NCBI GenBank assembly: GCA_007117285.1
Contig: SKGW01000053.1
Span: 1 to 38,675, forward strand
Direction: 5' to 3'
DNA: 38,675 nt
DNA from: Bacilli bacterium
GTDB taxonomy: Bacteria; Bacillota_I; Bacilli_A; RF39; UBA660
Both the position numbers and the translations under genes were made by a program. Below the pieces are notes generated by a model. It was not told where the DNA came from and did not search any database. It saw only the letters and a program-made list of their open reading frames with translations. Position 1 is the stretch's first letter. Each line of letters starts with the position of its first letter. Below, one piece after another: positions 10,060 through 30,521 of the stretch.

Positions 10060-10135
10060 GAAATTAATAATTGCATAATATGTGATGTAACGTATAAATG
10101 ATTTGAGTGTCCTGCATATTTTGAAAGGAGCAAAT

Positions 10136-11495: not shown

Positions 11496-11515
11496 AAGTA
11501 AGGAATAATTTCACG

Positions 11516-12571
11516 ATGATCAAAAAGCTTGAAAAAAAAATCAAAGGTTTTACATTAATAGAGTTACTTGCGATTATTGTTATAATTGGTCTGCTAATAT
11601 TAGTAATTGTACCGGCGGTATCTGATGTAATTGAACATTCTAGAAAGAAAACTTTTCATTCCAGTATATCTAGCTTGGTTAAAATTGCCCAAAACACTTG
11701 TGCCGAAAGGGTGGCATTTGGTCAGGAAAAAGATGTTACTTATACTTTTGAAAACGGTATTCAAACAACTCACCCTAGCAATCAATCAAAATTATCATTT
11801 GCGGGAAAAGCTCCTCACGCTGGATATTTAATTATAAATGGGGACTGTGAGATAAGATTGTCGCTTTCAAACGGGAAATATTTTATTGAAAAGAGTTTTG
11901 AAAGCACGCTAAATCAGCCTGTTGCTTATGACGATCAAGATTTAGAGGCTCCTTATCTGAAGGCACCTTGCCGGGGAATGACTAGCATAGTTGATCCAAG
12001 AGATTCTAAAGAATACAAAATAGTTGAAATTGGAGATCAATGTTGGTTTGCTGAATATTTAGATTATGAAGATCCTCTTTGTATTTCAAATCCAATTGAT
12101 CATCCGTCAGCAACGGGTTGCAGAAGAAATAACAATATAGTTTATTACCAATTCGATGCCCTAATGAATGGCGAAACCACAGAAGGTAGTCAAGGAGTTT
12201 GCCCTACAGGCTGGTACGTTCCTACGGATGACGACTTTCATGCATTAGAAATTTACTATGCCGTCGATGAATGTTCTGCAACAAGAATAGGTTTGCATGG
12301 TTCTGGATCTGAGTCTTCATATGATTGTTCACCGGCAGGGTCAGCGCTAAAACACACTAATTATTTTAATGCGGAATTAGTTGGCTACGTTATACCTTAT
12401 TCGGGAAACCTCTTTAATTATGGTTTTGATGCACTACTAGTTAGTTCAAGTGAATATTATAACGATTACTCCATAGTCAGAATTGTTTCCGAATCTTCTG
12501 ATGCCATTAGTCGAGCCTATACTTCAACGTATAATTTGTTACCCTTGAGGTGCATAAAGAGCAGTCAATGA
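11516..12571 (+). CDS. Prepilin-type leader protein with pilin-like head and C-terminal Fibrobacter-succinogenes-major-paralogous (FISH) domain
   Basis: MIKKLEKKIKG/FTLIELLAIIVIIGLL is a class III signal (G/F with Glu at +5). C-terminal DPRDSKEYKIVEIGDQCWFAEYL ... CPTGWYVPTDDDF ... LPLRCIKSS matches the FISH-domain pattern. Ends with TGA. Confidence 0.85.
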   Translation: MIKKLEKKIKGFTLIELLAIIVIIGLLILVIVPAVSDVIEHSRKKTFHSSISSLVKIAQNTCAERVAFGQEKDVTYTFENGIQTTHPSNQSKLSFAGKAPHAGYLIINGDCEIRLSLSNGKYFIEKSFESTLNQPVAYDDQDLEAPYLKAPCRGMTSIVDPRDSKEYKIVEIGDQCWFAEYLDYEDPLCISNPIDHPSATGCRRNNNIVYYQFDALMNGETTEGSQGVCPTGWYVPTDDDFHALEIYYAVDECSATRIGLHGSGSESSYDCSPAGSALKHTNYFNAELVGYVIPYSGNLFNYGFDALLVSSSEYYNDYSIVRIVSESSDAISRAYTSTYNLLPLRCIKSSQ

Positions 12572-12581
12572 GGTTTTCATT

Positions 12582-14225
12582 ATGAAAAAGAAAAATATAT
12601 TTTTAATGATATCGTTATTAATAGCTCTAAAATTTGTTCTAATTACTAGCAATATAACACCTTACTTTAGAATGATGCGTTTTGATGAGTTGCTCTATAT
12701 TGATCAAACATATAATTTGTTTAATGGTAATTTCTTAGGAGTTTATAACGAATACACTTTAACTAAGGGGTATATATTCCCTCTTTTTGTTTTGTTTTTC
12801 AACGTTTTTAAAATATCGTATGTTATGGGACTCGAAATATTTTATGTAATCACATTATTGTTATTTTTTCGCGCTTTAAGATACTACACAGACAAGGAGA
12901 TTGTTAAAATATCAATTTTTGCAGTTTTGCTTTTTTCACCAGTCATAGTTACTTGGGAAATGTCGAACATGTTTTATCGGAACGGCTTGAGTCTAGTCTT
13001 GGCCTTTCTTTTGTTTGTAATTTTTTTAGAAATATATAACAATTCTAATAACCAAAAAAATTATTTTCTATTTGGCATTGTTGCAGCATTATTTATGCTT
13101 AATAGAGAGGATTTTTATTGGTTTATTCCCATCTTTATATCACTTTTATTTATTAAAACTAAAATCACTAACAAGATTGTGCCGATAGTAATTATTGCCT
13201 GTTCTTTTTTTATAGTCGCAACAGTTAATTATTATTATTATGATACTTTTATAGTGAACGAATTGAAATCTGGTCAATTTAAAAATACATATTCACTAAT
13301 GATGAGCGTCAAAAGAAAAAATGACTCAAACCTAATATTTAGCGAAAGAATTGAGTTAGTAAAAGAGTACAGTCCAGCTTTCAATTCTATTTTTAAAGAT
13401 GATAATTTCGGCACATATATGTCTTTAAAAGGAAATGTAGAGAGTTATAAGGATTTAGAAGATAGAGGAATACCTAATCACTTTTTTTGGATCTTTCGAG
13501 AAAGAGTTCAACAGTTGGGGTATTATGAAAGTGCAAACGAAGCCGAACTATTTTATAAAAGAATATATGATGAAATAAAAAAGGAAATCGATGATGGTAA
13601 TTTAACAAAAGAAAAAACAATTTCGACAGGGATGGCCTTGCCTATATATTTAGATCAGATAAACCTTGAATATTTAGGTGCCGTTTCTGGTAGGCTTGCC
13701 ACTTCTTTCAAGATGTCAGCTACTTATGATGGTATAAAATATGTTGAACCTTGCTCGCCTAAATATTTTGGATATGAAAAAAAGTTTGAAAAAATCACAA
13801 ATGTTGAAAACAAGAAATTTTTATGTTCTGAAAAAACAAGAAATTATAACCAAACGACGATAGTGAAAATAGAAAGAATAAGAAAAGTTTATGCTATAGT
13901 TACACCGTTTTTGCTTCTTGGAGGATTTGGATCCTTGATAGCTTTGATTTACAAGAAAAAGGATATCTTTGCAGAATTGGCAATATTTTTAGCAGTAACT
14001 TTGCTTGCACTTGGAGTGTCGTTTGCAGACTACACTTCGTTTTACGCTTTGCGGTTTTATTATCTTGCACCACTGTACTTTTTTCTTCCAATAGCTAGTA
14101 TTTTGTTAATATTGAAATTAATAAAATTTTATGATCCAGAATCAATTAGGAAACTATATGCTGAACGAAAAGGAAAGAACCTGGAAATAGAAGTGGAAGA
14201 AGAAATTACTTCAAAAGCAAGATAA
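12582..14225 (+). CDS. GT-C-fold-like polytopic membrane glycosyltransferase (GtrC/YfhO/ArnT-type role) with a chimeric C-terminal tail
   Basis: Multi-pass membrane protein. A DELLY motif lies after the first helix (DExxY first-loop signature of GT-C enzymes). It has a soluble insert of about 200 aa and further helices. The last 32 aa are encoded by repeat copy 2. Confidence 0.6.
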   Translation: MKKKNIFLMISLLIALKFVLITSNITPYFRMMRFDELLYIDQTYNLFNGNFLGVYNEYTLTKGYIFPLFVLFFNVFKISYVMGLEIFYVITLLLFFRALRYYTDKEIVKISIFAVLLFSPVIVTWEMSNMFYRNGLSLVLAFLLFVIFLEIYNNSNNQKNYFLFGIVAALFMLNREDFYWFIPIFISLLFIKTKITNKIVPIVIIACSFFIVATVNYYYYDTFIVNELKSGQFKNTYSLMMSVKRKNDSNLIFSERIELVKEYSPAFNSIFKDDNFGTYMSLKGNVESYKDLEDRGIPNHFFWIFRERVQQLGYYESANEAELFYKRIYDEIKKEIDDGNLTKEKTISTGMALPIYLDQINLEYLGAVSGRLATSFKMSATYDGIKYVEPCSPKYFGYEKKFEKITNVENKKFLCSEKTRNYNQTTIVKIERIRKVYAIVTPFLLLGGFGSLIALIYKKKDIFAELAIFLAVTLLALGVSFADYTSFYALRFYYLAPLYFFLPIASILLILKLIKFYDPESIRKLYAERKGKNLEIEVEEEITSKAR

Positions 14226-14249
14226 TTAATAATTTCTTGTTTTTTATTG
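14127..14249 (+). repeat. Direct repeat copy 2 (123 bp)
   Basis: Same sequence as 9879-10002. It includes 32 codons, the TAA and a weakened hairpin/T-run. Confidence 0.95.
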
Positions 14250-14275
14250 ATAAGAATTGGTTGCTATGTTATACT
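14247..14275 (+). promoter_or_regulatory. Sigma-A-type promoter of the 586-aa gene, with its -35 box straddling the end of repeat copy 2
   Basis: TTGATA (14247-14252), a 17-nt spacer with TG at -15/-14, then TATACT (14270-14275). The RBS AGGAGG precedes the ATG at 14301. Confidence 0.65.
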
Positions 14276-14300
14276 TTTTATTAGAGTAGGAGGATTTTAA

Positions 14301-16061
14301 ATGGAAAAAAAATACATTATAATGCTAAGAATAGCATCGGTTGTACTTATTGTTTTACTGGGAGCAATAGCGTACATTTCACTATCAGTTAATCCAAAAA
14401 GCGTTTTTATTGCATCAATTAATAATACATACACACAAATGTCAAATGTGATGAGCGGATTAAGAGAAAGCAAATTTGCAACACTCTCAAGAGAAAAACC
14501 AGTGTCGCTAATTACTGAAGTTGATTTTGAATTCGGTCATTCAGAAGGTCTTCAAGAACTAGAAATGATCGCAGAAATGCTTGAAGGCTTAGGAATTAAT
14601 TACTCAATTGAGCAAGATTTATTGAATAAAAAATTATATATGGATTTTCGAGCTTTATTTGAAGAAGAGAAAATTTTAGGAGCAAATGTTTTTGCCGAAG
14701 ACGGCGTTACATACTTCTTTATACAAGAATTTTTTGATCATTATGTAGGTGTTGATGATATCGATTTATTTCAAGAAGATGAAACTGATGTAGTTGAGTT
14801 GCTTGATGATGTTGAAATATTAGTTGAAAAGACTAAAACACTATTTTTGAAAAGTTTGAAAAATGATTACTTTTCTTCAGAAAAAACAGATATTACATTA
14901 AATGGAGAGCAAGTATCTGTAACTAGAAATACCTTTGATTTAGATGAAACTAGAATTAAAGAGATGTTGGAATATGTAATTAATGGATTGAAAAAAGATG
15001 AAAAAGCACTTGAATCACTTAAAAACATAGCAAATTATAGTTCGAATGAAAATCTATCAAAAGAAGAAATTATCGAAGGACTTGATGAAGCAATAGCAGA
15101 AATTCCAAATTTAGATTTAGATGGATTTGAAATGTCTTATTCAATCTATGTTAAAGGCCTTTTAAATAAAATAGTTAAACATGATTTCATGATTTCATAC
15201 AATGACTACAATGGAGCACAAACAGTAAACATAATTAACTATAATAGAGATAAAATTAACGTGTTTGAATTTTACAATAATGATGAAATGGTTTTGAGTT
15301 TTGAACTATTAGAAAATGATGAAGAAACATCAAAATTTGGAATATTTGTTTATGAAAATGGTGAACAAATATTTGCAATTGAACTTGAAATGAAATTCAC
15401 AGAAACCGAAATAGAAAAAGATAAGCATTACGAAAGTGAACTTAATTTAAATCTGAAAGTTACAATGGAAGATGATAATATAATTTTTGGAATGAATGCA
15501 ATAACAGAACTGGAAGTACTTGAAAGAATTTATGAACCATCAAGAGGTGTTTTAATAAAATATGATGATATGACAGAAATGCAAATAGAAAACATGGAAC
15601 AAACTTTAGAAGATTTATTTGGCGGAATTGCAGAAATGCTATTCCCTGGAGCTTTTGAAGCAATCGACGACGCTCAAAAAGGAGCTTTTAATGCAACAGG
15701 ATATGGATTGGTAAGAGCAGCAGAAAACGAACATATGAGAAGAGCTTTAGGCGGCGAAACCCTCGAAATTCGCTATGAATTTAAGCTTGATGGTACCAAC
15801 ATGGGAACAAACGGAACAAGTTTAGATTTTAATGGACAACAACCAATTATCGGTTCAATAGTTGTAAAAGAAGATGGACTAGTATATATGGCCGTGTCAG
15901 ATGGAACATATTGCTTGGTGTCAGCAGGAAATAGAGAAGAAGTCTTCACGTATGATGAATATGAATTGATGTCACAATATGCTGTTGATAGTATCTATGA
16001 CTGCACAGTTGAAGGTTTGAACCTTCGATTAAATATTAACAATTTACATTTTGAACGTTAG
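14301..16061 (+). CDS. N-terminally anchored acidic protein ending in a pilin-head-like module (no prepilin leader)
   Basis: One N-terminal hydrophobic helix (IASVVLIVLLGAIAYISLSV) and a long D/E-rich region. The last ~150 aa align by eye with the head domains of the two prepilin proteins (AFNATGYGLVRAAE ... LDFNGQQPIIGSIVV ... SDGTYCLVS). Confidence 0.7.
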   Translation: MEKKYIIMLRIASVVLIVLLGAIAYISLSVNPKSVFIASINNTYTQMSNVMSGLRESKFATLSREKPVSLITEVDFEFGHSEGLQELEMIAEMLEGLGINYSIEQDLLNKKLYMDFRALFEEEKILGANVFAEDGVTYFFIQEFFDHYVGVDDIDLFQEDETDVVELLDDVEILVEKTKTLFLKSLKNDYFSSEKTDITLNGEQVSVTRNTFDLDETRIKEMLEYVINGLKKDEKALESLKNIANYSSNENLSKEEIIEGLDEAIAEIPNLDLDGFEMSYSIYVKGLLNKIVKHDFMISYNDYNGAQTVNIINYNRDKINVFEFYNNDEMVLSFELLENDEETSKFGIFVYENGEQIFAIELEMKFTETEIEKDKHYESELNLNLKVTMEDDNIIFGMNAITELEVLERIYEPSRGVLIKYDDMTEMQIENMEQTLEDLFGGIAEMLFPGAFEAIDDAQKGAFNATGYGLVRAAENEHMRRALGGETLEIRYEFKLDGTNMGTNGTSLDFNGQQPIIGSIVVKEDGLVYMAVSDGTYCLVSAGNREEVFTYDEYELMSQYAVDSIYDCTVEGLNLRLNINNLHFER

Positions 16062-16067
16062 AAATAT

Positions 16068-16110
16068 AAAAACAGTTTTTACTATTTTAGTCAAAATACT
16101 GTTTTTTTTT
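16068..16110 (+). terminator. Intrinsic terminator (long imperfect hairpin plus T9)
   Basis: AAAAACAGT (16068-16076) pairs with ACTGTTTTT (16098-16106). The T-run extends to 16110. Confidence 0.6.
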
Positions 16111-16118
16111 GCTCTTTT

Positions 16119-16127
16119 TGATATAAT
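16119..16127 (+). promoter_or_regulatory. Extended -10 box (TGATATAAT)
   Basis: Located 26 nt upstream of the ATG at 16153. The RBS GAGGAG lies in between. Confidence 0.55.
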
Positions 16128-16152
16128 TTAATTAGTTTGAGGAGAGTTTTTT

Positions 16153-17547: not shown

Positions 17548-17556
17548 TTAGTTACT
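17539..17556. terminator. Imperfect palindrome around CTAATTAG between convergent genes (weak bidirectional terminator candidate)
   Basis: AACTAATTAGTT (17542-17553) is a perfect palindrome flanked by an A-run and a T-run. It contains the + strand TAA stop. The convergent pgm-like gene stops 17 nt further on. Confidence 0.35.
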
Positions 17557-17564
17557 TTTTTCTG

Positions 17565-18914: not shown

Positions 18915-18930
18915 AGTATCACCCAAACAA

Positions 18931-18939
18931 ATTATAACA
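18931..18939 (-). promoter_or_regulatory. Extended -10 box (TGTTATAAT) for the phosphohexomutase gene
   Basis: The reverse complement of 18931-18939 is TGTTATAAT, about 17 nt upstream of the ATG. Implies a short leader. Confidence 0.5.
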
Positions 18940-18948
18940 TATAATTGT

Positions 18949-18977
18949 TTGAAAAATTAGACTAAACTGTGTATAAT
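18949..18977 (+). promoter_or_regulatory. Sigma-A-type promoter of the glucan synthase gene
   Basis: TTGAAA (18949-18954), a 17-nt spacer, TATAAT (18972-18977). GGAGG at 18995-18999 and ATG at 19005. Confidence 0.65.
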
Positions 18978-19004
18978 GTAAATGTATGTAACGTGGAGGT
19001 AATT

Positions 19005-22000
19005 ATGAAAAACACATCGATTAGAAATGTTAGAAAAAACATGAAATTTATTACAAATTATTATAAAAAACTAACAACTTATACCAAACAAACAAAAAGT
19101 GTCGGTAGTATAAACGAATGGATCGTTGATAATTACTACTTATTGAGTGAGCAAGAACAAACGATAAATCACGAATTAAGTAGTTTAAAAATACTTCAAA
19201 TTAAACCAAAGCGAAAGCAATATCTAGACAACTTAATTTGTTCATATTTAGAACAAGAGAATTTTCGATTAGATACAAACTTGCTATTTAAGTTTCTTAA
19301 TAATTATCAATTAGAAAATGATGATTTTTTTACGTATGATGAAATTGATTACATAAATAGTTCTATAAAATGTAACATAATTTCAAAATTAAGAATTTTA
19401 AGCGAAAAATTAAAATATAAATTTTTAGAAAAAGAAAAAATAGATCAATGTTTCAAAAAAATATCTAGCCAACTCGAGAAGGACAGCGAAGCAAGCATAG
19501 ATAACTGCCTACCAATAGATAAATCATTAATTGGTTCTCATTTTAAAATACTTGAGATTAACCACAGACTAAACAGCTTGGGCGAAAGATCAGAAGAAAT
19601 ATTTGTTAAGTTAAACGAGTTATTGATTTCTAACAATACCTCATTAAAAGAAATAATTAACGTAGAGCATGATGAAAGATCAAATGAAAACATACTAATG
19701 GTAAACTTAATTTCATCTTTTAAAGTTGCTATCAAATTTAAGTTAGAAGACTTGTATGCCAAAATAAGCTATGTTGAAAAAGCTTTAATTAACGAAAAAG
19801 CAGAAGTTTATGACACAATGTATGAAGTTTCAAAAATAGAGTATAGAAGTGAAATAAAAAAACAAGTAAAAAAGAAAAAAATAAGCGAGTACGAATTCGC
19901 TAAAAATTTGTTGGAAAAAGCGGGCGAGGAGCACGTTGGTTTTCACCTTTTTAAAAAGAAAAGATATAAAGCGCGAGCATATTTGTATGTGACGGCTGTT
20001 TTTTTAGTCGCTCTTTTTGTTAATTATGCGATATATATTGAATTGGGACTTTTAGCATTCATTCTTTTCCTATTACCAATGATAGGATTTTCGGTTGAAG
20101 TTATAACGCAAATTTTAATGAAAAATGTTGATACTCAAACGTTATTTAGAATAAAACTGGAAAATCATCTTCCTCAGAAGTACAGTACAATGGTTGTTAT
20201 TCCAACTATCTTAAAAGATCCAGACAAAGTAAATCAAATGTTTGATAACTTAGAGTTGTATTATTTATCAAACAGAGCACAAAATTTATATTTTTGTTTG
20301 CTTGGCGATGTTACTAGTGAATCAACTGCTAAAACAAAAATGGATGATAAAATTTTAAATGCTGGTCTTGAACGAGCAAGAAAGTTAAATGAAACATACG
20401 GTAAAAATATTTTTCATTTTGCTTATCGTAATCGTTTTTTCAATCCAAAAGAGGGATCGTTTTTAGGATACGAGAGAAAAAGAGGAGCACTCCACCATTT
20501 CAATCAGGCCCTATTGGGGAAATTATCTTTATCAGATCAAGAAAAATATTTTAAAGGGCATACGCTAGCTCCTTTAGAGGGGAAAATCAAGTATATAATA
20601 ACACTTGATGCCGACACAAAATTACTATTAAACACAGCATTAAAATTAATAGGAACAATGGTTCATCCAATGAATAAACCAATTCTTTCTGATGATGGAA
20701 GAAAAGTAGTAAAAGGTCATGCAATAATGCAACCGCGAGTCAGTATAGATGTCGAAGTAACAAATATATCAGAATACTCTCAATTGTTTGCTGGACTTGG
20801 TGGACTCGATATTTATTCAACAAAGCAATTTGATTTATATCAAGATGTTTTTGGTGAAGGAAGTTTTACAGGAAAAGGGATTTACGATTTAGAAATTTTT
20901 GATAAAGTTTTAGGAGATACTTTTCCAGAAAATTTAATCTTAAGCCACGACCTTTTAGAAGGTAATTACCTTCGTTGTGGATATATAAGCGATGTTGAAT
21001 TATTTGATGGATTTCCTTCAAAATATTTAAATGATGCAATGCGTCATCATAGATGGACTAGAGGAGATTGGCAGATAATTGGTTGGCTTAAAAAATATGT
21101 TAAAGATCATAAAAATGATTTAGCATTGAATCCTTTAAATTTAATAAGTCGATGGAAAATATTTGATAACTTAAGAAGAAGTTTAAGAAGTCCATTATTA
21201 TTTCTTATTGTTTTATTTGGGTTTGCATTAACTGATCGACCGACATTAGTTATGGGAATTGTTTTTATAATAATTGCTGTTCCTATTTTCTTCTACCTAT
21301 TGCATCAATTACTAGCAAGACAAAAATATGATATTTTACTTAGATACTATATGAGAATAATATGGGGATTAATGGCTGTTATTGCAAAATCTTTATTAGT
21401 TTTTGCACTACTTCCATACGAGGCCTTCCTATACATGAACGCAATTGTAAAAGCTTGTTATCGCATGCTTGTGAGTAAGAAAAACTTGTTAAACTGGGTT
21501 ACTTCTGAAGAAGTTGAGGCAACAGCAAAAAATACGCTAGGAAATTACTTTAAAAATTTCAAAGTTAATTACGTTGCAGCAATAGCAATTCTTTACTTTG
21601 CTAAAGATTTATCGATGGAGCATGTGTTTTTATCATACTTAGTAGCATTTATATGGTTAATTGCTCCGTTTTTGATGTACTTTGTTAGTAGAGATATTAA
21701 AAACGAACAAGAACAACCAGGAAAGAGAATGGAAAGCGATGTTCGTGAAATAGCACAACAAACTTGGGCTTATTTTGATAAAACATTAACAAAAGAAAAC
21801 AATTTCTTAGTTCCTGATAACTTTCAATTAAATAGAAATCAAAAATTTGATTCTAGAACCTCACCTACAAATATAGCATTTTCATTAACGGCTGTAATTT
21901 CAGCTTTTGAATTAAAATTAATAAGTAAAAACAGTGCTATAGATAAGATTAATAATATAATTAAAAACGTTGAATCTTTGAAAAAATGGAATGGACATTT

Positions 22001-25000
22001 ATACAATTGGTATGATATTAAAACAAAAAAAGAACTTCCACCACATTTTATTTCAACAGCTGATAGTGGAAACTTCATTTCGACTTTATATGTGGTAAAA
22101 GGATTTTTGAGTAAATGTTCTGGTTACAACTCTTTGAAGTATAGAATTCAAAAACTAATTGATAAAACAGACTTTTCAAAACTATATAACGAAGAAGGCG
22201 ATGTATTTAGTATTGGTTATGTAGTTAACGAAGGAACTTTGGTTCCGTATAACTATAATAACTTTTTATCAGAAGCGAGACTTGCTAGTTTTGTAGCTAT
22301 TGCAAAAGGTGATGTTCCTTTTAAACACTGGTTTAGATTGGATAAAACTTTGACAAAGCATAAATGGTATAAAGGAGTAGTTTCTTGGTCGGGAACGATG
22401 TTTGAATACTACATGCCACTTATTTTCATGAAAACATTTGAACACACATTACTTGATGAGACATATGCTTTTGCTTATTACGCTCAAAAAGAATTTGTTA
22501 ATGAAGTAAGTTCAAAAATACCTTGGGGTATTACTGAGTCAGCATACAATGAATTAGATGATTCGCAAAATTACAAGTATAAAGCATTTGGAATTCCTTA
22601 TTTGAAATTCCACGATAGTGAAATACCACAAATAGTAATATCACCATACGGTTCGATTATGGCTTTGACTAAATATCCGGTTGAAGTTTATAACAATATT
22701 AAAAAAATGAAAAAAATTGGTATGCAAGGTGAGTTCGGACTTTACGAGGCCTATGACCACGAAGATGGAGCTATAGTTAAAGCTTACTACGCTCACCATC
22801 AAGGAATGATTTTAACAAGTATAACTAATTATTTAAAAAACAATATAATCCAAGAGTATTTTCATGCCGACAAAAATATACAATCAGTTGAAATACTTTT
22901 AAAAGAAAAAGTTCAAATCAGAACATATATTGATTTGAAAATAGCTAGATATAAAAAATACAATTATAAGAGAGATGTTATCGATAGTGATATGCGAGAA
23001 CAGGAAGGAATTATGCCAATTCCTGAGGTTGGGGTATTATCAAATGGATTTTATTCAACTTTCATAAATGATCGAGGAATAGGATTCAGCAAATATAAAA
23101 ACTTACAAATAAATAGATACAGAAAAATAACTGATGAAAATCATGGATTGTTTGTTTATATTAAAAACACAAAAACTAATAAAATTTATCCTAACACTTA
23201 CAGTCCATCTTGCACGGAGCCCGATCACTATCATGTTGTCTTTGCATCGGATAGAATAAAATTTGTTCGTGAAGATGAAGATCTTATAACAACAACTGAA
23301 ATTACAGTTGCTAAGGATCATAATGCAGAAATTAGAAAAATCAAAGTTGAAAATACTTCACAAGAAAGCGTTGAGTTAGAATTAACTTCATATGGTGAAG
23401 TGATAATGGCTCGTCCTGAAGAAGACATAGCACACCCTGTTTTTAATAACGTTACAATTAAAGCTGAGATTGATGAAGTTACTTCCTCTTTAATGTTCTC
23501 AAGACGTTCAAGAACAAAAGAAAACACAAAATATTTTGTTATTAATCGCTTTTTTGCAGAAGAAGATGACGGTGTTTTTGAGTATGAAACTTCAAGAATG
23601 AATTTCTTAGGAAGAAACAACACAACTCTTAATCCAAGTAAAATAGTTAAAAATGAATCATTATCATCAGATTGCACACAACTATTAGAACCGATAATGA
23701 GTATTAGAAAAAAAATAACATTAAAACCAAACTCTAAAAAAACTTTATACTTACTTGTTGGATTTGGTAAATCTAGACAACAAGTTATGGAAATTGTTAA
23801 TGCTTACAACAATGATAAAAAAATTGAAGCAGCCTTTGATAAGGCCACTGTTTTAAACAATATGCGTAATAGGTATGCTGGTCTAAGCGGAATTGAAACT
23901 AGAGCTTACAATAGCCTCTTAAAATACGTCTACCAGCCAACTTATGAAGCAGGAAGATCTAATTTACTAAGAACTAATATTTTAACGCAACAAAACTTGT
24001 GGAAATTTGGAGTTTCGGGAGATCTTCCAATTATAGTCGTTGATGTTTTTAGTGCTGAGAATTCAGGGTTTATAAAAGATATACTTAGAGCATATGAGTT
24101 TTATAAAAGCAGAGCAATTTATATCGACATAATTATTATAAACAATGAAATTGATGAGAAAAAAGAAATTGTAAATAAATATGTTGAAAGATTACTTTAT
24201 CGAATTAACAATTTAAATTATTTCGAGGACTCTCCTGGTAGTGTCAAAGTAGTAAGTGATATTACCGAAGAAGAGAGAACTCTTCTAAAAATGGTATCCA
24301 GCTTATACTTTGATGGATCTCAGAGAAAACCTTTAACGGATCAAATATATGAAATGGAAGCTACAAAAACTTCAATTTCTAGACTTTGTTTCAAAAAAGA
24401 TATGATTCCATTGGGAAATAAAAATTCAAATGAGTACGGAAAATTTAGTGAAGATGGAAAAGAATTTACAATAAAAACAATGGATACACCAATGCCGTGG
24501 TCAAATGTTATTGCAAACGAAGAATTTGGTAGTGTTATTACTAATAACTTCGGTGGTTTTACATATGCTCATAACAGTAGAGAGTTTAAGTTAACTTCTT
24601 GGAGCAATGATCCAGTGGTTGATCCACCTAGTGAATCAATTTTCATAGACGGACTTAGATTAGTTCCGAGTGAAGTAGTTCATGGATTTGGATATTCTAA
24701 ATTTATTACGAAAACAGAAAATTATGATATTGAAACTACTGTTTTTGTTCCAACTAATGATAATGTCAAAATATATGATGTTTTAATTAAATCCAAAAAT
24801 AGAAAAAGATGCTTGGTGGAATTCGATATTAAACCGGTATTGGGAGTTAGCGAAGAAACTACAAACAAATATATTTTATCGGAATTTGATCCAGTGCATA
24901 ATTGTTTATTTATGAGGAATACATATAGTAAAATTTTCAAAAATGAAAAAGTCTTTGTTAGTAGTTCAAAAGATATAAGTAGTTGTAATCTGGAGGATAT

Positions 25001-26576
25001 TAACTCTAAGTCAATTATGGTAAATCTTGATTTAGAAAATGAAAACAGAGTTAGCTTTATGTTGGGGTGTGGTGATTTTGAAAACGTTATACCAAAGTAT
25101 AGAGATTTTGAAAATATCAACAATGAACTTAATAATGTCAAAAAATATTGGGATTCTAAGGTTGGTAATATAACTATTGAAACACCTGATAAAGATCTTA
25201 ACAATATGGTTAATGGTTGGATACTCTACCAGGCCTACGCGTCGAGATTATATTCAAGAGCGGCGTTTTATCAAGTTGGTGGAGCAACTGGTTTTAGAGA
25301 TCAACTTCAAGATTCGCTTTGTCTTCTATACAACAATCCAGAATATGCAAGAAAACAAATTTTAGAGCATGCAAATCATCAGTTTGCTGAAGGCGATGTT
25401 CTTCACTGGTGGCATGAAGATTTAAGATTTGGAGCAAGAACAAGGTTTTCAGACGATTATCTTTGGCTTGTGTATTGTACTTATGAATATGTTAAAGCAA
25501 CTAATGATTACTCAATATTAGAAGAAAAAGTAGGTTTTGTAGAAGCAGATCAACTTCAAGAATCAGAATCAGAAAAAGGTGTTGATTTTACTTATTCTGC
25601 ATCAAAGGAAACACTATACTATCACTTGAAACTTGCAATTAATAAAGCTGTTTCTCAATTTGGGAAAAACAAACTTCCGTTAATGGGCAGTGGTGACTGG
25701 AATGATGGTATGAGTAAAGTAGGTCATTTAGGAAAAGGTGAGAGTGTTTGGGTTGGATTTTTCCTTCATGAAAACCTTGAACGAATGAGTGAAATGACCG
25801 AAGATGCGGAATTTAAAGAAATGTGTATGGCAAAATCTCGTGAATTAAAAGAGTCAATTAATGAAAACGCTTGGGATGGAGCTTGGTATACTAGAGCGTT
25901 CTTTGACGATGGAACACCTATGGGAACATCTGAAAACAAAGAATGTCAAATAGATCTAATCTCTCAAGCATGGAGCATTATTACTGATGTTGCGCCAAAA
26001 GATAGAAGAAAATCAGTTATTTCTGCTGTTGAAAATCAACTTGTTGATAAAGAAGTAGGACTAATTAAACTTTTAGACCCAGCTTTCACAGGACTTGAAA
26101 ACAATCCAGGATACATAAGCGATTATCTTCCTGGTGTTCGTGAAAATGGTGGTCAATATACTCATGGAGCGCTTTGGTATATAATGGCTTTGGCAAAACT
26201 TCGAGATCCAAGAGCGTATGAACATTTTAAAATGATAATGCCAAGTGGTAAGGACTCCGATGTTTACAAGGTTGAACCATATGTCATTGCGGCAGATATA
26301 TATTCTAATCCTGCTTTCAACGGTCACGGTGGATGGACTTGGTATACAGGTTCTGCCAGCTGGGCCTACAAAGTTGCTTTGGAAGGAATATTAGGCTTTA
26401 AAAAAGTTGGAAACACTTTAGTTATAAAACCTAATTTCCCAAAAAAGTGGGGAAGTATAAAAATTTCTTATGAGTATTTTGAAACAACATACAATTTAGA
26501 AATTAACTATAAGGATGAAGAATCTATTATCGAACTAGAAAATGACAAAAAAATACATGATATAGTTTTAAAGTAA
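19005..26576 (+). CDS. cgs: Cyclic beta-1,2-glucan synthase-like giant protein (membrane GT84-type domain, glucoamylase-like middle region, GH94 phosphorylase-type C-terminus)
   Basis: 2523 aa from ATG 19005. GT84-like motifs: ERKRGAL, ITLDADT, MQPRV, GKGIYD, LSHDLLEG, RHHRWTRGDWQ, flanked by hydrophobic helices. GH94-like motifs: GATGFRDQLQD, HWWH, GSGDWNDGM, RENGGQYTHGALW, WYTGSASWAY. Confidence 0.85.
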   Translation: MKNTSIRNVRKNMKFITNYYKKLTTYTKQTKSVGSINEWIVDNYYLLSEQEQTINHELSSLKILQIKPKRKQYLDNLICSYLEQENFRLDTNLLFKFLNNYQLENDDFFTYDEIDYINSSIKCNIISKLRILSEKLKYKFLEKEKIDQCFKKISSQLEKDSEASIDNCLPIDKSLIGSHFKILEINHRLNSLGERSEEIFVKLNELLISNNTSLKEIINVEHDERSNENILMVNLISSFKVAIKFKLEDLYAKISYVEKALINEKAEVYDTMYEVSKIEYRSEIKKQVKKKKISEYEFAKNLLEKAGEEHVGFHLFKKKRYKARAYLYVTAVFLVALFVNYAIYIELGLLAFILFLLPMIGFSVEVITQILMKNVDTQTLFRIKLENHLPQKYSTMVVIPTILKDPDKVNQMFDNLELYYLSNRAQNLYFCLLGDVTSESTAKTKMDDKILNAGLERARKLNETYGKNIFHFAYRNRFFNPKEGSFLGYERKRGALHHFNQALLGKLSLSDQEKYFKGHTLAPLEGKIKYIITLDADTKLLLNTALKLIGTMVHPMNKPILSDDGRKVVKGHAIMQPRVSIDVEVTNISEYSQLFAGLGGLDIYSTKQFDLYQDVFGEGSFTGKGIYDLEIFDKVLGDTFPENLILSHDLLEGNYLRCGYISDVELFDGFPSKYLNDAMRHHRWTRGDWQIIGWLKKYVKDHKNDLALNPLNLISRWKIFDNLRRSLRSPLLFLIVLFGFALTDRPTLVMGIVFIIIAVPIFFYLLHQLLARQKYDILLRYYMRIIWGLMAVIAKSLLVFALLPYEAFLYMNAIVKACYRMLVSKKNLLNWVTSEEVEATAKNTLGNYFKNFKVNYVAAIAILYFAKDLSMEHVFLSYLVAFIWLIAPFLMYFVSRDIKNEQEQPGKRMESDVREIAQQTWAYFDKTLTKENNFLVPDNFQLNRNQKFDSRTSPTNIAFSLTAVISAFELKLISKNSAIDKINNIIKNVESLKKWNGHLYNWYDIKTKKELPPHFISTADSGNFISTLYVVKGFLSKCSGYNSLKYRIQKLIDKTDFSKLYNEEGDVFSIGYVVNEGTLVPYNYNNFLSEARLASFVAIAKGDVPFKHWFRLDKTLTKHKWYKGVVSWSGTMFEYYMPLIFMKTFEHTLLDETYAFAYYAQKEFVNEVSSKIPWGITESAYNELDDSQNYKYKAFGIPYLKFHDSEIPQIVISPYGSIMALTKYPVEVYNNIKKMKKIGMQGEFGLYEAYDHEDGAIVKAYYAHHQGMILTSITNYLKNNIIQEYFHADKNIQSVEILLKEKVQIRTYIDLKIARYKKYNYKRDVIDSDMREQEGIMPIPEVGVLSNGFYSTFINDRGIGFSKYKNLQINRYRKITDENHGLFVYIKNTKTNKIYPNTYSPSCTEPDHYHVVFASDRIKFVREDEDLITTTEITVAKDHNAEIRKIKVENTSQESVELELTSYGEVIMARPEEDIAHPVFNNVTIKAEIDEVTSSLMFSRRSRTKENTKYFVINRFFAEEDDGVFEYETSRMNFLGRNNTTLNPSKIVKNESLSSDCTQLLEPIMSIRKKITLKPNSKKTLYLLVGFGKSRQQVMEIVNAYNNDKKIEAAFDKATVLNNMRNRYAGLSGIETRAYNSLLKYVYQPTYEAGRSNLLRTNILTQQNLWKFGVSGDLPIIVVDVFSAENSGFIKDILRAYEFYKSRAIYIDIIIINNEIDEKKEIVNKYVERLLYRINNLNYFEDSPGSVKVVSDITEEERTLLKMVSSLYFDGSQRKPLTDQIYEMEATKTSISRLCFKKDMIPLGNKNSNEYGKFSEDGKEFTIKTMDTPMPWSNVIANEEFGSVITNNFGGFTYAHNSREFKLTSWSNDPVVDPPSESIFIDGLRLVPSEVVHGFGYSKFITKTENYDIETTVFVPTNDNVKIYDVLIKSKNRKRCLVEFDIKPVLGVSEETTNKYILSEFDPVHNCLFMRNTYSKIFKNEKVFVSSSKDISSCNLEDINSKSIMVNLDLENENRVSFMLGCGDFENVIPKYRDFENINNELNNVKKYWDSKVGNITIETPDKDLNNMVNGWILYQAYASRLYSRAAFYQVGGATGFRDQLQDSLCLLYNNPEYARKQILEHANHQFAEGDVLHWWHEDLRFGARTRFSDDYLWLVYCTYEYVKATNDYSILEEKVGFVEADQLQESESEKGVDFTYSASKETLYYHLKLAINKAVSQFGKNKLPLMGSGDWNDGMSKVGHLGKGESVWVGFFLHENLERMSEMTEDAEFKEMCMAKSRELKESINENAWDGAWYTRAFFDDGTPMGTSENKECQIDLISQAWSIITDVAPKDRRKSVISAVENQLVDKEVGLIKLLDPAFTGLENNPGYISDYLPGVRENGGQYTHGALWYIMALAKLRDPRAYEHFKMIMPSGKDSDVYKVEPYVIAADIYSNPAFNGHGGWTWYTGSASWAYKVALEGILGFKKVGNTLVIKPNFPKKWGSIKISYEYFETTYNLEINYKDEESIIELENDKKIHDIVLK

Positions 26577-26601
26577 GGAGTATGCTCTTTACTTTTTTCA
26601 A

Positions 26602-26630
26602 TTCACAAAATAAACAAATAATGGTATACT
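26602..26630 (+). promoter_or_regulatory. Sigma-A-type promoter of pgi
   Basis: TTCACA (26602-26607), a 17-nt spacer with TG, TATACT (26625-26630). ATG at 26651. Confidence 0.55.
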
Positions 26631-26650
26631 TTTATAAAGGTAGTGATTAT

Positions 26651-27802
26651 ATGAAAATTGATTTTAAAACATATTCAAATATTGATATAGATAAAGAATT
26701 AGAAAAGCATGATTTTTCTAAATTAGGTAGTTTTTTTGAAAATCATTCGAATTATACTGGGTGGTTAAATAGTAATTTAAATTTAGAAAAAACAAAAGAA
26801 AAGGGTAACTTTTTCAAAAAAGAATGTGACATATTATTAGTCGTGGGAATAGGCGGTTCATATCTAGGCGCCAAGGCCATAATAGATGCGCTAAGTGTTG
26901 AAAACAAAGTGGAAATCTTGTTTGTCGGAAACACTTTATCAACTGATGCTCTAGTTAATGTAAAGAAAAAAATAGAAAATAAACGAGTTGGAATTAATTA
27001 TATTTCCAAATCTGGTGAAACATTAGAAACGCGAATTATTTTTAATGAATTAATGAAAGTGATGAAAATAAAATATTCTGATGATGAATTAAAAAAGAGA
27101 GTTGTTTATACAACGGGGAATAAAGAAATTGTTCCGAGCGGATATGATTATTTTTTAATTCCCGATAACATAGGCGGTCGATATTCTGTATTTACAGCAG
27201 TTGGTTTTCTACCAATATATGTTGCGGGTATTGATGTGGATAATTTGTATTTAGGATCTCAAAGCAGTGAAATAAGTGAAGATGTTAAAAAATATGCTAT
27301 TTTTCGAAAGAAAATGCAAGATGATGGGAAAAAAATTGAAGCGTATGTTACTTATAATCCAAAACTATTCTTTTTAATTGAATGGATTAAGCAACTATAT
27401 GCCGAATCGCTGGGAAAAGAAGGTCAAGGAATTTTTCCGGTAGGGCTTATAAATACGACCGATCTTCATTCAATTGGTCAGTTCATGCAAGAAGGCTCAA
27501 AGATTACATTTGAAACGGTAATTAATTTTGAAGAAAAAAAAGAAATATACATTGATGAGTATTCTAAATATTTAAGTGAAATTAATGAAATAGCTCAAAC
27601 CTCAACTTCAAAAGCTCATTATGAGGCAGAAGTTCCTAATATCATTATTAACAATGGAGAGTTGAATGCTAAGAATTTAGGTTATTTAATGAAGTTTTTA
27701 ATGATGTCTTGTGCTGTTAGTGGATACTTGGAAAATATCAATCCATTTAATCAAGAAGGAGTTCAAGTTTACAAAAAAGAAATGTTAGATAAATTAGTTT
27801 AG
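26651..27802 (+). CDS. pgi: Glucose-6-phosphate isomerase (short form)
   Basis: VVGIGGSYLGAKA, SKSGETLET, GGRYSVFTAVG and ESLGKEG motifs. The ATG at 26651 has a GGTAGTGA-type RBS. The upstream track extension overlaps the promoter. Confidence 0.9.
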   Translation: MKIDFKTYSNIDIDKELEKHDFSKLGSFFENHSNYTGWLNSNLNLEKTKEKGNFFKKECDILLVVGIGGSYLGAKAIIDALSVENKVEILFVGNTLSTDALVNVKKKIENKRVGINYISKSGETLETRIIFNELMKVMKIKYSDDELKKRVVYTTGNKEIVPSGYDYFLIPDNIGGRYSVFTAVGFLPIYVAGIDVDNLYLGSQSSEISEDVKKYAIFRKKMQDDGKKIEAYVTYNPKLFFLIEWIKQLYAESLGKEGQGIFPVGLINTTDLHSIGQFMQEGSKITFETVINFEEKKEIYIDEYSKYLSEINEIAQTSTSKAHYEAEVPNIIINNGELNAKNLGYLMKFLMMSCAVSGYLENINPFNQEGVQVYKKEMLDKLV

Positions 27803-27816
27803 TCTGTATATGTTTG

Positions 27817-27825
27817 TGTTATAAT
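27817..27825 (+). promoter_or_regulatory. Extended -10 box (TGTTATAAT)
   Basis: Part of the 14-mer TTTGTGTTATAATA, which recurs at 32067-32080. The RBS AGGAG and the ATG at 27847 follow. Confidence 0.55.
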
Positions 27826-27846
27826 ATAAAAAATAGGAGTGATTTT

Positions 27847-30501
27847 ATGAATAAAAAAGGTTTTACGTTGGCAGAGTTACTAGCGGTAATAGTTATAATT
27901 GCATTAATTATATTAATCATTGTTCCAATAATGGGAGAGGTTTTATATGAGGCGCGAAGAGATTCATTTCAAAATGATGTTTCTTCACTTTTTAATGTAG
28001 CTTCAATTGAAAACTCAAGTAATAGTAGACATAAAACATTTTTATTAAAAGAAAGAAAACTACACTCAGTTGAGGGCAACAAGGAAATTCAATTTCGCGG
28101 TAATGTTAACGGCTCGGGGTATATTTATATAAGCCCAGAAAAAGAAGCTGCTTTTATTTGTAATGACGCTTGGTGCGTTGAAAAAATTGGTGAAAATTTT
28201 GTTGTTACTGAAGTCGATGAAAACCTAGCTTTTTCAACAAAAGCCCTATTAACTTATAATGAGTTAGATGAAAATGAAAACTTTAATTCTTTATTTATGG
28301 TTTTTTCGGAAAACACTATAACTGAAATGAAATATATTATTAACAGAAGTGCAACTCCGTTGATTTCAACTTCTCCTCTTTGGGATACGGCTAATCACAT
28401 ACCAGAAGCTTTTAGCAATGTTGAATTAGGCGTTGCAGAGGCTGGTGTTTATTATGTTCACACGTTAGCTGTCGATTCTTTAGCAAACCGAACTGTAAAC
28501 GTATCAGATCCAATCTTTATGAATCCAAATGATGAGAACAGAGTTGCAGAGCTAGTTCAGTTAAGAGACTTTATTGGAGCTGCTGTAACACCAAATAGAG
28601 ATGTTAGATATGATATGATCGATCCTAGTCGATATGAAAATTCAACAATACCCGAAATCATAAAAGACTTTAAATTACTTCAAAGAGCGGGGTATGATGG
28701 TGTTGTTGTTGAAAAAGTAGGAATGGCAAGTGGCGGAATCGGTGATGCTTCTTTAAATATTAATACAGCATGGTATAACATCGGTGAATCTATTTATTCA
28801 GGAAGTACAACTAAATACAGCGTAATCGAAAAAATTATGGAAGCCGCAGAAACAACTGGTATTCAAGTATTTCTTGGAAACGTTGCAATAAAGGACTGGT
28901 CAAATCCAAATGTTATTTCGAATTTGGATTGGCAAAATGCAATAGCACAAATGTTTATAAGTGTTAATACAGAATTGCACACATTGTATTCTGGAAGTTC
29001 ATCATTCGCAGGGTTTTACTTCAATAACGAGATTTTTACAAACAATATAAATTTAGAAAGTTACTGGGCGAACGTCATAAATCAAGTAGTGGTAAACGTT
29101 AATTCATTGGCGGGCTCTCCCACTTTTAAAGTTGGAGCTCACATTTCCGGAAAGTATAACGCTACACCAGCGGAAGTGCAGTCAGGGTTTACTAGCTTAG
29201 TTAGTGGTGTTGGTTTTAGAAATGGTGATCGAATTTTATTAAAAGACGGGTTTGGGTTAGGGCATTACAAGCCAATTGATGTATTTGCGCATGCCGAAGC
29301 TATCCAAACAGCAGTAGCAACTTCAGCAACCACTTTATCTTTGAACTTTGTTGTTGAAAATGGTAGTTATTCGGAAAAAAACGAAATTGCTTCAATTGAA
29401 AGATATAAAGAACAACTTAACACTGTAGCTAGATTTGGTGGAGATTTTTATTCATACTCGTATTTAGAAAATTATAATTTCTTTGCTAAAGATAATTTAA
29501 ACGAAAAAATATCTACAAGTTATGATAAGGGATTTAGAGAATTCATAGGACAGGACACTTCGGCTGATTCAGCGATAACAGCGCTTTATGCTCCAGCGGG
29601 AGGATCTGTATTTGTCGATGTGGATGGACGTGAAGCTCCAGTTCCGGCAGGTTTCAATGTCTCTTTAAGTTTAGATGAAAGAAAAATAGAAAATGGTTTA
29701 GTTATTCACGACTCTCTAGGTAATCAATTCGTTTGGGTTCCTGTTGATTTAGGAGTTAAAGCAAAAGGTTATAATTATGGAAGTAATGAAACAGATAAAG
29801 TCGCGTATGCTAGATATTTAACGAACGGAATAACAGACCTAGCTCCACTTAATTCACATACAATGCCAACAGGAGTTACTTCTGAGGCGGCACAAATAGA
29901 AAAATATAGGGGGTTTTATATTGGAAGATATGAATCAACTTATGAACATAGTGGTGGAACTAGAAGAGTTATGATAAAGCCAACAACAGATGACAAAATA
30001 AGCACATCATTTGCATGGGCTAGTGCAACAATAGCTAATGACGGATACTTATGGAATAACATAACTTATGTTGATGCCAAAGCTAAAGCTGAGGCAATGC
30101 GCACTCACTACGGTTATACACCAAGAACAGGTTTGGTTACAGGAACACAGTGGGACACTTTCTTAAGATGGATTTATGTTAATAATCAAGAAAAAACGAT
30201 AATTGATGACGGTCGAGGTTGGGGTAATTACAACAATTCAGTATTCCCGGCATCGGGAGGTAATTATCAAGTGGGAACTTTAAAAGGAACCGGAACAAAT
30301 GATACATGGTATATTAACAATGTTGCCGATGTTGCCGGAAACCTTCGTGAGTGGACTGCTGAAACAAATGGTAGTCAATACGTAATAAGATCAAACGGAT
30401 ACGACGGAAGCGGATTGTCTGGAGGACCATCTTACTCCGTGTTGAGCAATTCAACAGCTACGGCTAACACGGGATTTAGAGTAGTGCTATATATTGATTA
30501 A
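27847..30501 (+). CDS. Prepilin-type leader protein carrying a pilin-like head, an Ig-like spacer, a DUF4434-like TIM-barrel region and a C-terminal FGE/SUMF1-like domain
   Basis: MNKKG/FTLAELLAVIVIIALIILIIVP is a class III signal. The middle region has RAGYDGVVVEK ... IQVFLGN ... FAGFYFNNEI (glycoside-hydrolase-like TIM-barrel pattern). The C-terminus has GFYIGRYEST, TGTQWDTFLRWI, GNLREWTAE and GFRVVLY (FGE-sulfatase / C-type-lectin-fold pattern). Confidence 0.8.
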   Translation: MNKKGFTLAELLAVIVIIALIILIIVPIMGEVLYEARRDSFQNDVSSLFNVASIENSSNSRHKTFLLKERKLHSVEGNKEIQFRGNVNGSGYIYISPEKEAAFICNDAWCVEKIGENFVVTEVDENLAFSTKALLTYNELDENENFNSLFMVFSENTITEMKYIINRSATPLISTSPLWDTANHIPEAFSNVELGVAEAGVYYVHTLAVDSLANRTVNVSDPIFMNPNDENRVAELVQLRDFIGAAVTPNRDVRYDMIDPSRYENSTIPEIIKDFKLLQRAGYDGVVVEKVGMASGGIGDASLNINTAWYNIGESIYSGSTTKYSVIEKIMEAAETTGIQVFLGNVAIKDWSNPNVISNLDWQNAIAQMFISVNTELHTLYSGSSSFAGFYFNNEIFTNNINLESYWANVINQVVVNVNSLAGSPTFKVGAHISGKYNATPAEVQSGFTSLVSGVGFRNGDRILLKDGFGLGHYKPIDVFAHAEAIQTAVATSATTLSLNFVVENGSYSEKNEIASIERYKEQLNTVARFGGDFYSYSYLENYNFFAKDNLNEKISTSYDKGFREFIGQDTSADSAITALYAPAGGSVFVDVDGREAPVPAGFNVSLSLDERKIENGLVIHDSLGNQFVWVPVDLGVKAKGYNYGSNETDKVAYARYLTNGITDLAPLNSHTMPTGVTSEAAQIEKYRGFYIGRYESTYEHSGGTRRVMIKPTTDDKISTSFAWASATIANDGYLWNNITYVDAKAKAEAMRTHYGYTPRTGLVTGTQWDTFLRWIYVNNQEKTIIDDGRGWGNYNNSVFPASGGNYQVGTLKGTGTNDTWYINNVADVAGNLREWTAETNGSQYVIRSNGYDGSGLSGGPSYSVLSNSTATANTGFRVVLYID

Positions 30502-30521
30502 GAGGTTAGCGCCTCTTTTTT
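30500..30521 (+). terminator. Intrinsic terminator
   Basis: AAGAGG / CCTCTT stem with a TTAGCG loop, followed by T5. Confidence 0.8.

Follow-up and report, generated by a model that had tools for sequence, protein, structure and literature searches.

The stretch of DNA analysed here (the window, 38,675 nucleotides) comes from a metagenome contig of 43 kb (ENA ERZ27301260 k141_320415), where it occupies bases 4351-43025. Its DNA has a GC content of about 30% and carries long intact open reading frames (ORFs) in genetic code 11. Three ORFs, all on the plus strand, were examined: A (11516-12571, 351 amino acids), C (14301-16061, 586 amino acids) and B (27847-30501, 884 amino acids). A preliminary description had interpreted them as one pilin-head module used three times to carry unrelated cargos, which would form a surface-display system together with the sugar and glycosylation genes around them. 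A and B turned out to have the makeup of modular type IV pilins; C carries a pilin-derived domain at the opposite end of a protein of another kind. A lies within a 4.25-kb cassette of glycosylation-type genes directly upstream of C, and a Cgs/NdvB-like gene lies between C and B.

The shared module was sought in every ORF of at least 50 amino acids across the whole 43-kb contig, using a profile hidden Markov model (HMM) built from 31 short family pilins from outside, with all window sequences excluded. The profile matched exactly three ORFs, A (E = 6e-39), B (8e-26) and C (1.5e-22). In each it covered the head region, which served as the test for the α1C helix and the antiparallel β-sheet head. 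The core consensus of the module reads L[DE]F.G..P..G.I.[VI]...G.[VI]....[DN]G.[YW]C and is preceded by α1C with an invariant Phe. Pairwise BLASTP aligned A residues 38-130 with C 446-537 (E = 3e-9) and A with B (E = 2e-4); B against C alone was not significant. Searched against the PDB, the family profile gave matches on α1 only, with no solved relative beyond it. The class III motif with Glu5 and Pro22 was found in A and B only in a six-frame scan of the window. Both proteins are above the Pfam N_methyl cut-off (22.7 bits against 21.2) and also match TIGR02532. Thus, HMM and BLASTP bear out one homologous module in the three genes, but it is an N-terminal carrier in A and B only and is C-terminal in C. 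A and B are predicted to be canonical prepilins carrying grafted domains.

Protein A, the first probable modular pilin, was recognised by its N_methyl and Fib_succ_major matches, the motif scan and the HMM. Its leader MIKKLEKKIKG/FTLIE (that is, KIKG/FTLIELLAIIVIIGLLILVIVP, with the slash at the cleavage motif) has Glu5 and Pro22, and an alternative TTG start is present at 11492. The pilin head spans approximately residues 1-140 (nt 11516-11941) and includes the only transmembrane (TM) segment, residues 14-32. A Fib_succ_major (FISH) domain follows at approximately residues 165-351 (nt 12008-12568). It was detected by both Pfam (E = 1.4e-14) and TIGR02145 (2.3e-21), confirming the lectin-like cargo proposed for this gene. 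With N_methyl plus Fib_succ_major, A fits the definition of a modular pilin, an N-terminal pilin module joined to an extra domain. For two relatives with the same head and FISH domain (P0057 and P0018), the genomic context was limited to contigs of 1.4-4.6 kb.

Protein B, a second probable modular pilin, has the leader MNKKG/FTLAE (KKG/FTLAELLAVIVIIALIILIIVP), again with Glu5 and Pro22. Its head (nt 27847-28236) is followed by a spacer. Of the cargo originally assigned to B, the TIM-barrel-like region was recovered as DUF4434 (approximately nt 28666-29466; Pfam E = 1.4e-11) and the domain resembling formylglycine-generating enzyme (FGE), an FGE-sulfatase-like domain of C-type-lectin fold, was recovered by a family profile compared with the PDB (within nt 29557-30498), but the Ig-like nature of the spacer found no support (best Pfam E = 0.23). 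Word-index searches with full-length B, as with the GT-C-like membrane protein described below, returned essentially the query alone owing to hydrophobic-word saturation; the cargo of B alone was usable as a query instead. The last 314 residues had no direct Pfam or PDB match. They yielded 927 homologues, and PF03781 was present on approximately 20 of the best 120. The profile of this family matched SUMF2 (PDB 1y4j, E = 1.2e-7) and FGE (2e-5), the match spanning only the last ~60 profile positions. PorK/GldK, TvpA and EgtB were matched as well; the E-values lie between 1e-7 and 1e-5 for SUMF2, FGE, PorK and TvpA, and between 1e-7 and 1e-3 with EgtB included. The active site of FGE contains a catalytic cysteine pair. 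Since no cysteine is present in its last 314 residues, the B C-terminus, predicted to be FGE-like at the level of the fold, cannot be a formylglycine-generating enzyme and would be a binding module of the TvpA/pFGE type. With N_methyl, DUF4434 and the FGE-like domain, B also fits the modular-pilin definition. Homologues of the FGE-like domain (P0153-P0271) are mostly 400-450 amino acids long and have pilin-like N-termini without Glu5, KGISLIVLVITIIVIIILAG or KGITLIALVITIIVLLILAGV; they may be pilins, pseudopilin-like anchors or plain signal anchors. In Clostridia metagenome-assembled genomes (MAGs) their genes are arrayed in tandem amid housekeeping genes, for instance three at L097 8200-13008.

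Upstream of B an extended -10 element, TGtTATAAT (27817-27825, plus strand), was read by hand, and a Shine-Dalgarno sequence AGGAG lies downstream of it, 8 nt before the ATG. Directly 3' of the gene is an intrinsic-terminator-like hairpin with a T-run (30500-30517, plus strand). These signals suggest that B is under its own promoter and has its own terminator. A sigma-70 promoter scan of the AT-rich window performed no better than on shuffled sequence. The 36-nt stretches before B (27791-27826) and before hpf (32045-32080) are alike (repeat D10) and both end in the extended -10 TGTGTTATAATA; B and hpf may have a common promoter type. Immediately beyond the B terminator, at 30590-32051, are genes for a response regulator of the LytTR type and for a GHKL kinase of short length (HATPase_c_5, AgrC/ComD-like), a pair that possibly regulates surface or competence-type genes.

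In protein C, the only TM helix (residues 6-24) is a signal-anchor with Lys/Arg before it. Residues 36-440 are acidic (89 Asp/Glu against 34 Lys/Arg). The acidic anchored region described earlier is present, but the pilin module is not at its N-terminus. The pilin-derived domain occupies residues 446-550 (nt 15636-15950, plus strand) and covers HMM positions 24-128 only. C has neither a G/F cleavage motif nor a hydrophobic α1N; the equivalent stretch, TLEDLFGGIA-EMLFP, is shortened and non-hydrophobic. With the signal absent and the module C-terminal, C shows no class III prepilin features, falls outside the modular-pilin definition and cannot be a prepilin-peptidase substrate. AlphaFold2 modelling of residues 421-586 with a family alignment dominated by true pilins gave a 58-residue helix (positions 6-63 of the model) followed by a β-sheet of 4-6 strands (pLDDT 90.2), the shape of a pilin; the domain thus keeps the α1C and β-sheet of the family. 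A Foldseek search of this model against the PDB found nothing significant (best E = 0.18, LolA). Compared with its orthologue on a related metagenome contig (L009), the C domain has a ratio of nonsynonymous to synonymous substitution rates (dN/dS) of ~0.19, equal to that of the rest of the protein. The domain is therefore maintained and is not debris, and C as a pseudogene remnant was ruled out. We regard C as a putative type II-anchored acidic extracellular protein, a paralogous re-use of the pilin fold and not a pilin.

To gauge the breadth of the pilin-head family, its profile was run exhaustively against 1.84 billion representatives (50% clustering). It matched 21,807 proteins at a threshold of E ≤ 1e-3, of which 3036 also passed E ≤ 1e-10. 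The best 150 matches range from 116 to 1419 amino acids, and nearly all start with MKKKGFTL[IV]ELLAVI. The 103 top matches longer than 230 amino acids were domain-scanned, and 99 of them contain N_methyl. Their cargos include Fib_succ_major (13 proteins), LRR_5 of the BspA type (12), DUF285 (10), GLUG (9) and Flg_new (7), together with rarer Gly_rich_2, RCC1, GH16 and others. Many cargos on one head are the normal state of this Firmicute-type pilin family. Among InterPro entries, IPR011871 is Fib_succ_major, IPR026906 is BspA-LRR and IPR005532 is the sulfatase-modifying-factor domain. Read with these names, the survey of Raynaud et al. (2021, PMC8179133) lists N_methyl plus Fib_succ_major and N_methyl plus FGE-type architectures as in A and B; its Dataset S1 gives 40 proteins for IPR012902-IPR011871, 18 for IPR012902-IPR026906 and 8 for IPR012902-IPR005532. 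That study described modular pilins as pilin 'carrier' and 'effector' modules, with more than 1200 proteins in 264 architectures from monoderms and diderms. A lectin-bearing minor pilin has been characterised (Shahin et al., 2023, PMC9934059), and modular pilins polymerise via the pilin module (PMC8179133, PMC9934059). The system had been put forward as undescribed; its design has in fact been published under the name of modular pilins (PMC8179133). A and B resemble the modular pilins of S. sanguinis (PilB with vWA, PilC with a lectin) in the pilin-plus-module design, the monoderm host and the lectin-type cargo. In contrast to these, which lie in a pil locus with the machinery, A and B have no machinery within 43 kb. 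B is further set apart by its combination of DUF4434 with an FGE-like domain on a pilin, found in just one other protein (P0152), whose N-terminus is incomplete.

The cargos of A and B are less unrelated than had been supposed. FGE-sulfatase and Fib_succ_major/DUF1566 domains have both been classed as C-type-lectin folds that present ligand-binding surfaces (Wu et al., PMC5758913), and A and B thus end in cargos of one and the same type. The class of TvpA and LdtA (FGE-sulfatase, Fib_succ_major/DUF1566; PMC5758913) likewise places C-terminal C-type-lectin-fold domains at the surface, and its FGE-like members are non-catalytic. Unlike in that class, the anchor here is a pilin module and not a lipoprotein signal, and a diversity-generating retroelement acting on the lectin domains was considered and rejected, since neither a reverse transcriptase nor a template repeat is present on the contig.

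The cassette that contains A spans 4248 bp (9998-14245, plus strand) and is absent from L009. Two 122-bp direct repeats on the plus strand, 96% identical and spaced by 4248 bp, delimit it. The left copy (9876-9997, family D1) consists of the 3' end of ORF 8283-9977 and a terminator-like hairpin. The right copy (14124-14245) gives the ORF of the GT-C-like protein its last ~33 codons and stop, thus fusing the tail of ORF 8283-9977 (...FYDPESIRKLYAERKGKNLEIEVEEEI.SKAR) onto it. L009, with 76-79% nucleotide identity, aligns to window positions 8282-10011 and 14124-16104 and to nothing between. In L009, the orthologue of ORF 8283-9977 directly precedes that of C; the genes for the glycosyltransferase family 2 (GT2) protein, the GtrA protein, A and the GT-C-like protein are missing. 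Because L009 has C without the cassette, A and C are neighbours through an indel and not by ancestry. A lack of conserved co-localisation in relatives had been named as one of the findings that would refute the display system, and L009, which keeps C while lacking the whole Gtr/pilin-A cassette, is such a case. Target duplications of transposons are far shorter than this repeat, and its length suggests Campbell-type or homologous recombination. ORF 8283-9977, whose 3' end is the recombination site, encodes a cytoplasmic-looking protein of 564 amino acids without an assigned family and is kept in L009 (phmmer E ~1e-298, 79% nucleotide identity). A phage origin of the cassette was considered and rejected, the GtrB-like PHROG being the only phage-type match and no phage genes being present.

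The first cassette gene (10103-11062, plus strand) encodes a GtrB-like GT2, by type a polyprenyl-phosphate hexose synthase, whose C-terminal part contains two TM helices (243-261 and 274-292). It matches Glycos_transf_2 (E = 1.1e-24) and, over its full length, PHROG 841 'GtrB-like O-antigen conversion' (3.2e-28). The next gene (11010-11495, plus strand) encodes a small GtrA-family membrane protein with ~4 TM helices, a putative flippase, whose match to GtrA_DPMS_TM (E = 1.1e-5, 26.1 bits) lies exactly at the gathering cut-off. Two components expected of a Gtr system are thus present in the cassette, namely a GT2 of GtrB type that has TM helices at its C-terminus and a GtrA-family protein. Downstream of A is the gene for a membrane protein of 547 amino acids (12582-14225, plus strand), for which a GT-C-like fold is predicted from topology and remote homologues. 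The cassette genes abut or overlap: 21 nt separate the end of GtrA from the A ATG, and the gap between the A stop and the GT-C-like gene is 11 nt.

The GT-C-like protein has ~9-11 TM helices, the last three of which are preceded by a loop of ~220 amino acids. Its first external loop bears an FDE/YDD motif; Asp35 of this loop does not vary across the family alignment. Neither Pfam nor the PDB gave a match, also with the family profile, and there was no match to Wzy_C or another family; one remote homologue gave a non-significant Wzy_C score (E = 0.078). AlphaFold2 without an alignment reached a pLDDT of 41.7, too low to use. Searches by tblastn against plasmids and phages were productive for this protein. 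Its remote homologues share 22-26% identity with it (E = 1e-12 to 1e-25) and come from Citrobacter, Enterococcus, Subdoligranulum and Listeria-associated records. On a Citrobacter plasmid, the homologue lies directly after a GtrA gene and before a glycosyltransferase gene. In Subdoligranulum variabile (L102 3824-6556), it is followed by a UbiA-family prenyltransferase (PF01040, 1.3e-26). By analogy, the family may use lipid-linked sugar donors, and it appears to resemble the polyprenyl-phosphate pentofuranose three-component systems. The cassette is like the Gtr three-component systems (GtrA/GtrB/GtrC; CsbB/GtcA/YfhO in Gram-positives; PMC8035078, PMC11127046) in having a GT2, GtrA and a polytopic putative third component with an acidic loop motif, and in its behaviour as a cassette. 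It differs from them in the pilin gene between GtrA and the third component, and in a third component from an uncurated family without a Pfam or PDB match. The gene order also recalls pilA-tfpW and pilA-tfpO of P. aeruginosa, in which a pilin gene is followed by that for a polytopic membrane glycosyltransferase using a polyprenyl-phosphate donor. Here, in contrast, GtrB-like donor synthesis and a GtrA flippase are encoded in the same cassette, there is no Wzy_C-type similarity (TfpW itself was not compared), and the acceptor role of the pilin is putative.

Sugar-related neighbours of the three genes had been noted before, and domain scans identified them as the GtrB-like GT2, GtrA, a phosphoglucomutase/phosphomannomutase, a GH94/Cgs-like giant protein and a phosphoglucose isomerase (PGI). 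The giant protein (18969-26576, plus strand; 2535 amino acids) is Cgs/NdvB-like, with a GT2-like region, ~6 TM helices, a glucoamylase-like region (Glycoamylase, 2.2e-22) and a GH94 module (Glyco_hydro_94, 4.7e-106; GH94_b-supersand, 3.4e-82). The GT2-type match is below the cut-off (22.4 against 27 bits). As a giant membrane protein with a glycosyltransferase domain and a C-terminal GH94, it fits the Cgs/NdvB definition, with the product predicted from sequence. The earlier suggestion that the Gtr cassette and the glucan synthase are functional partners of the pilins was not sustained. When the window GT2, GtrA, GT-C-like protein, Cgs-like protein (cgs) and PGI were used as queries against the flanks of 80 metagenome loci related to the pilin/FISH gene A, no homologue of any of them was found (0 of 80 with Gtr or cgs). 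Among 185,579 species genomes, cgs had a sole relative (35% identity, Clostridia MAG), too few for a co-occurrence test. No pilin motif was found in the flanks of that relative. B, with its own extended -10 and terminator, also stands apart from such a unit. A, B and C therefore do not form a single conserved system together with the sugar genes, and C is at an ancestral position.

That the window encodes no pilus-assembly genes was confirmed and extended. Neither the window nor the 4.35 kb that precede it on the contig gave a domain match to T2SSE, T2SSF or Peptidase_A24, and a Walker-A/GGGDxK motif scan was negative. Twelve metagenome loci with family pilins (115 ORFs) contained 19 N_methyl and 5 Fib_succ_major proteins, the rest being housekeeping genes (penicillin-binding proteins, elongation factor P, endonuclease IV, tRNA synthetases). 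Because family members are usually scattered among housekeeping genes in this way, the absence of machinery from the window is not diagnostic. Another member (P0002, head plus LRR_5) does have T2SSF and Peptidase_A24 genes immediately downstream. MreB and a sortase, both encoded on the contig, argue for a walled monoderm and not for the wall-poor cell considered earlier. MreB and SecA had no relative at 90% identity or above. We infer a low-GC, code-11, walled monoderm host.

Taken together, A and B are likely to be modular (bi- or multimodular) type IV pilins of a large Firmicute-type family. They would enter the membrane through the class III signal peptide and hydrophobic α1N, and a prepilin peptidase encoded elsewhere would cut them after the Gly. 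A type IV filament machine, also encoded elsewhere, would then take them up through the small pilin module, probably as low-abundance or tip subunits. This would expose the grafted modules, Fib_succ_major in A and the TIM-barrel-like DUF4434 with the Cys-free FGE-like domain in B. As both terminal domains have the C-type-lectin fold, they would act as ligand or adhesion modules and not as a sulfatase-maturing enzyme. Processing, filament incorporation and binding function are what we infer for A and B from their sequences. Surface display through the pilin pathway, as suggested in the preliminary description, is the natural reading for these two, with their N-terminal pilin modules and non-pilus cargos, but not for C, which lacks the cleavage motif. 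Several observations weigh against modular pilins of a filament. With 884 amino acids, B would make a very large filament subunit. The 43-kb contig encodes neither a prepilin peptidase nor an assembly ATPase or platform protein, and a filament machine in the organism is assumed. The model of C leaned on an alignment of mostly true pilins and has no significant structural match. The gene for A sits closely packed inside the Gtr operon, and a relative (P0006) adjoins an exopolysaccharide (EPS) cluster; some real link of these pilins to glycan biology is possible. The lack of machinery on the contig, the scatter of family genes amid housekeeping genes and the very large cargos (884 amino acids here, up to 1419 in relatives) would also suit proteins for which the class III signal and pilin module are a membrane anchor and export device only, leaving A and B unpolymerised at the surface in a bindosome-like manner. 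This is closest to the earlier display idea, and homologues of the B cargo often have pilin-like N-termini without Glu5. Filament assembly depends in part on Glu5. This residue is retained in A and B, as are Pro22 and the whole globular head, which argues for subunit packing. Sulfolobus offers a precedent for an anchor, sugar-binding proteins with class III signal peptides (PMC3047682). In this archaeal bindosome, non-pilin functional proteins reach the surface by a pilin-type signal and assembly pathway, as proposed here; however, it has dedicated Bas machinery and its substrates lack the conserved globular pilin head. The modular pilins characterised to date are filament subunits (PMC8179133, PMC9934059), and the relative P0002 lies beside PilC/PilD genes. 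We consider a mere anchor improbable.

The position of A raises a different explanation, in which the cassette would by itself suffice to glycosylate a pilin: the GtrB-like protein would make a polyprenyl-phosphate hexose, GtrA would flip it, and the GT-C-like protein would move the sugar to A or to proteins with the same head; alternatively, the FISH domain would bind the cassette glycan. The four genes abut or overlap and form one 4.25-kb indel, in which a GT-C-like gene comes after the pilin gene, an order comparable to that of known loci for pilin glycosylation (TfpW; bioRxiv 10.1101/2020.04.19.049825). The direct adjacency of the Citrobacter GtrA and GT-C-like genes would make the pilin an insert in a canonical cassette. 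Gtr-type systems glycosylate proteins in Firmicutes, including streptococci (PMC12041528), and the GT2 weakly matches PgfS. Their usual targets in monoderms, however, are teichoic acids and wall polysaccharides (PMC8035078). In addition, the GT-C fold is putative, no Ser/Thr-rich linker is evident in A, and the linkage is seen at a single locus, the flanks of the 80 related pilin/FISH loci containing no GT2 or GtrA homologue. Such a unit is unlikely as the explanation of the cassette, though it is the alternative to which we give most weight. The clustering could finally be meaningless, with three paralogues of an abundant surface family in an envelope neighbourhood and C as a decaying fusion remnant. 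Several family pilins per locus do occur elsewhere (three each in L094 and L078, two in L067), and the co-localisation is not kept in L009. The C domain, however, is under purifying selection, its dN/dS matching the rest of the protein, and A is operon-embedded and not simply nearby; chance clustering is very hard to credit. We favour modular pilins, with A having arrived, or having been lost in the relative, together with the Gtr-type cassette as one indel.

Grafting of binding or enzymatic modules on a small pilin carrier is an established idea, and the present locus opens no new category. It adds the size and cargo diversity of one Firmicute-type head family (the 3036 representatives above), the rare combination of DUF4434 and FGE-like cargo, a protein with a conventional anchor, under purifying selection, that has a pilin fold recycled as its C-terminal domain, and a clean presence/absence case of a pilin gene travelling in a Gtr-type cassette. 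If the coupling is functional, the cassette would matter for pilin glycosylation in Gram-positive bacteria. One may speculate, at long odds, that the cassette is a portable unit coupling a lectin-tipped pilin (glycan acceptor or receptor) to its own extracytoplasmic glycosylation, with C as a non-polymerising 'pilin mimic' docking on the same filament or its subunits. If true, it would be a glycan-linked pilus accessory module of a kind not yet described in monoderms.

Modular pilins beside polysaccharide genes were seen in a second case, at L006 1278-15765 (and L007). Two adjacent modular pilins, one with N_methyl and GLUG (688 amino acids) and one with the head and LRR_5 (749 amino acids), lie directly upstream of an EPS cluster with Wzz, CpsD, Polysacc_synt_2 and Bac_transf.

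No tRNA or rRNA was found in the window. The contig upstream (L095 1-4942) together with window positions 2-592 encodes a von Willebrand factor A and zinc-ribbon protein (928 amino acids), a sortase with Cu_amine_oxidN1 (390 amino acids) and then a leucine-rich-repeat (LRR) lipoprotein, which make up another cluster of surface proteins next to the genes examined here. Exact-sequence look-up of the LRR protein and of B (with two starts) returned no record. An ABC-transporter ATPase is split into two ORFs separated by a 100-nt gap, 1618-2007 (N-terminal part of ABC_tran, 129 amino acids) and 2107-2508 (DrrA1-3_C part, 133 amino acids). Because the independent Logan assembly L096 has the same split, an assembly error is less probable than a genuine frameshift or pseudogene. 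Directly after secA, at 35198-36388, lies the gene for a secreted or anchored protein of 396 amino acids with three tandem thioredoxin-like repeats containing CPWC/CPYC, which also appear as DNA repeats (D2 and D11).

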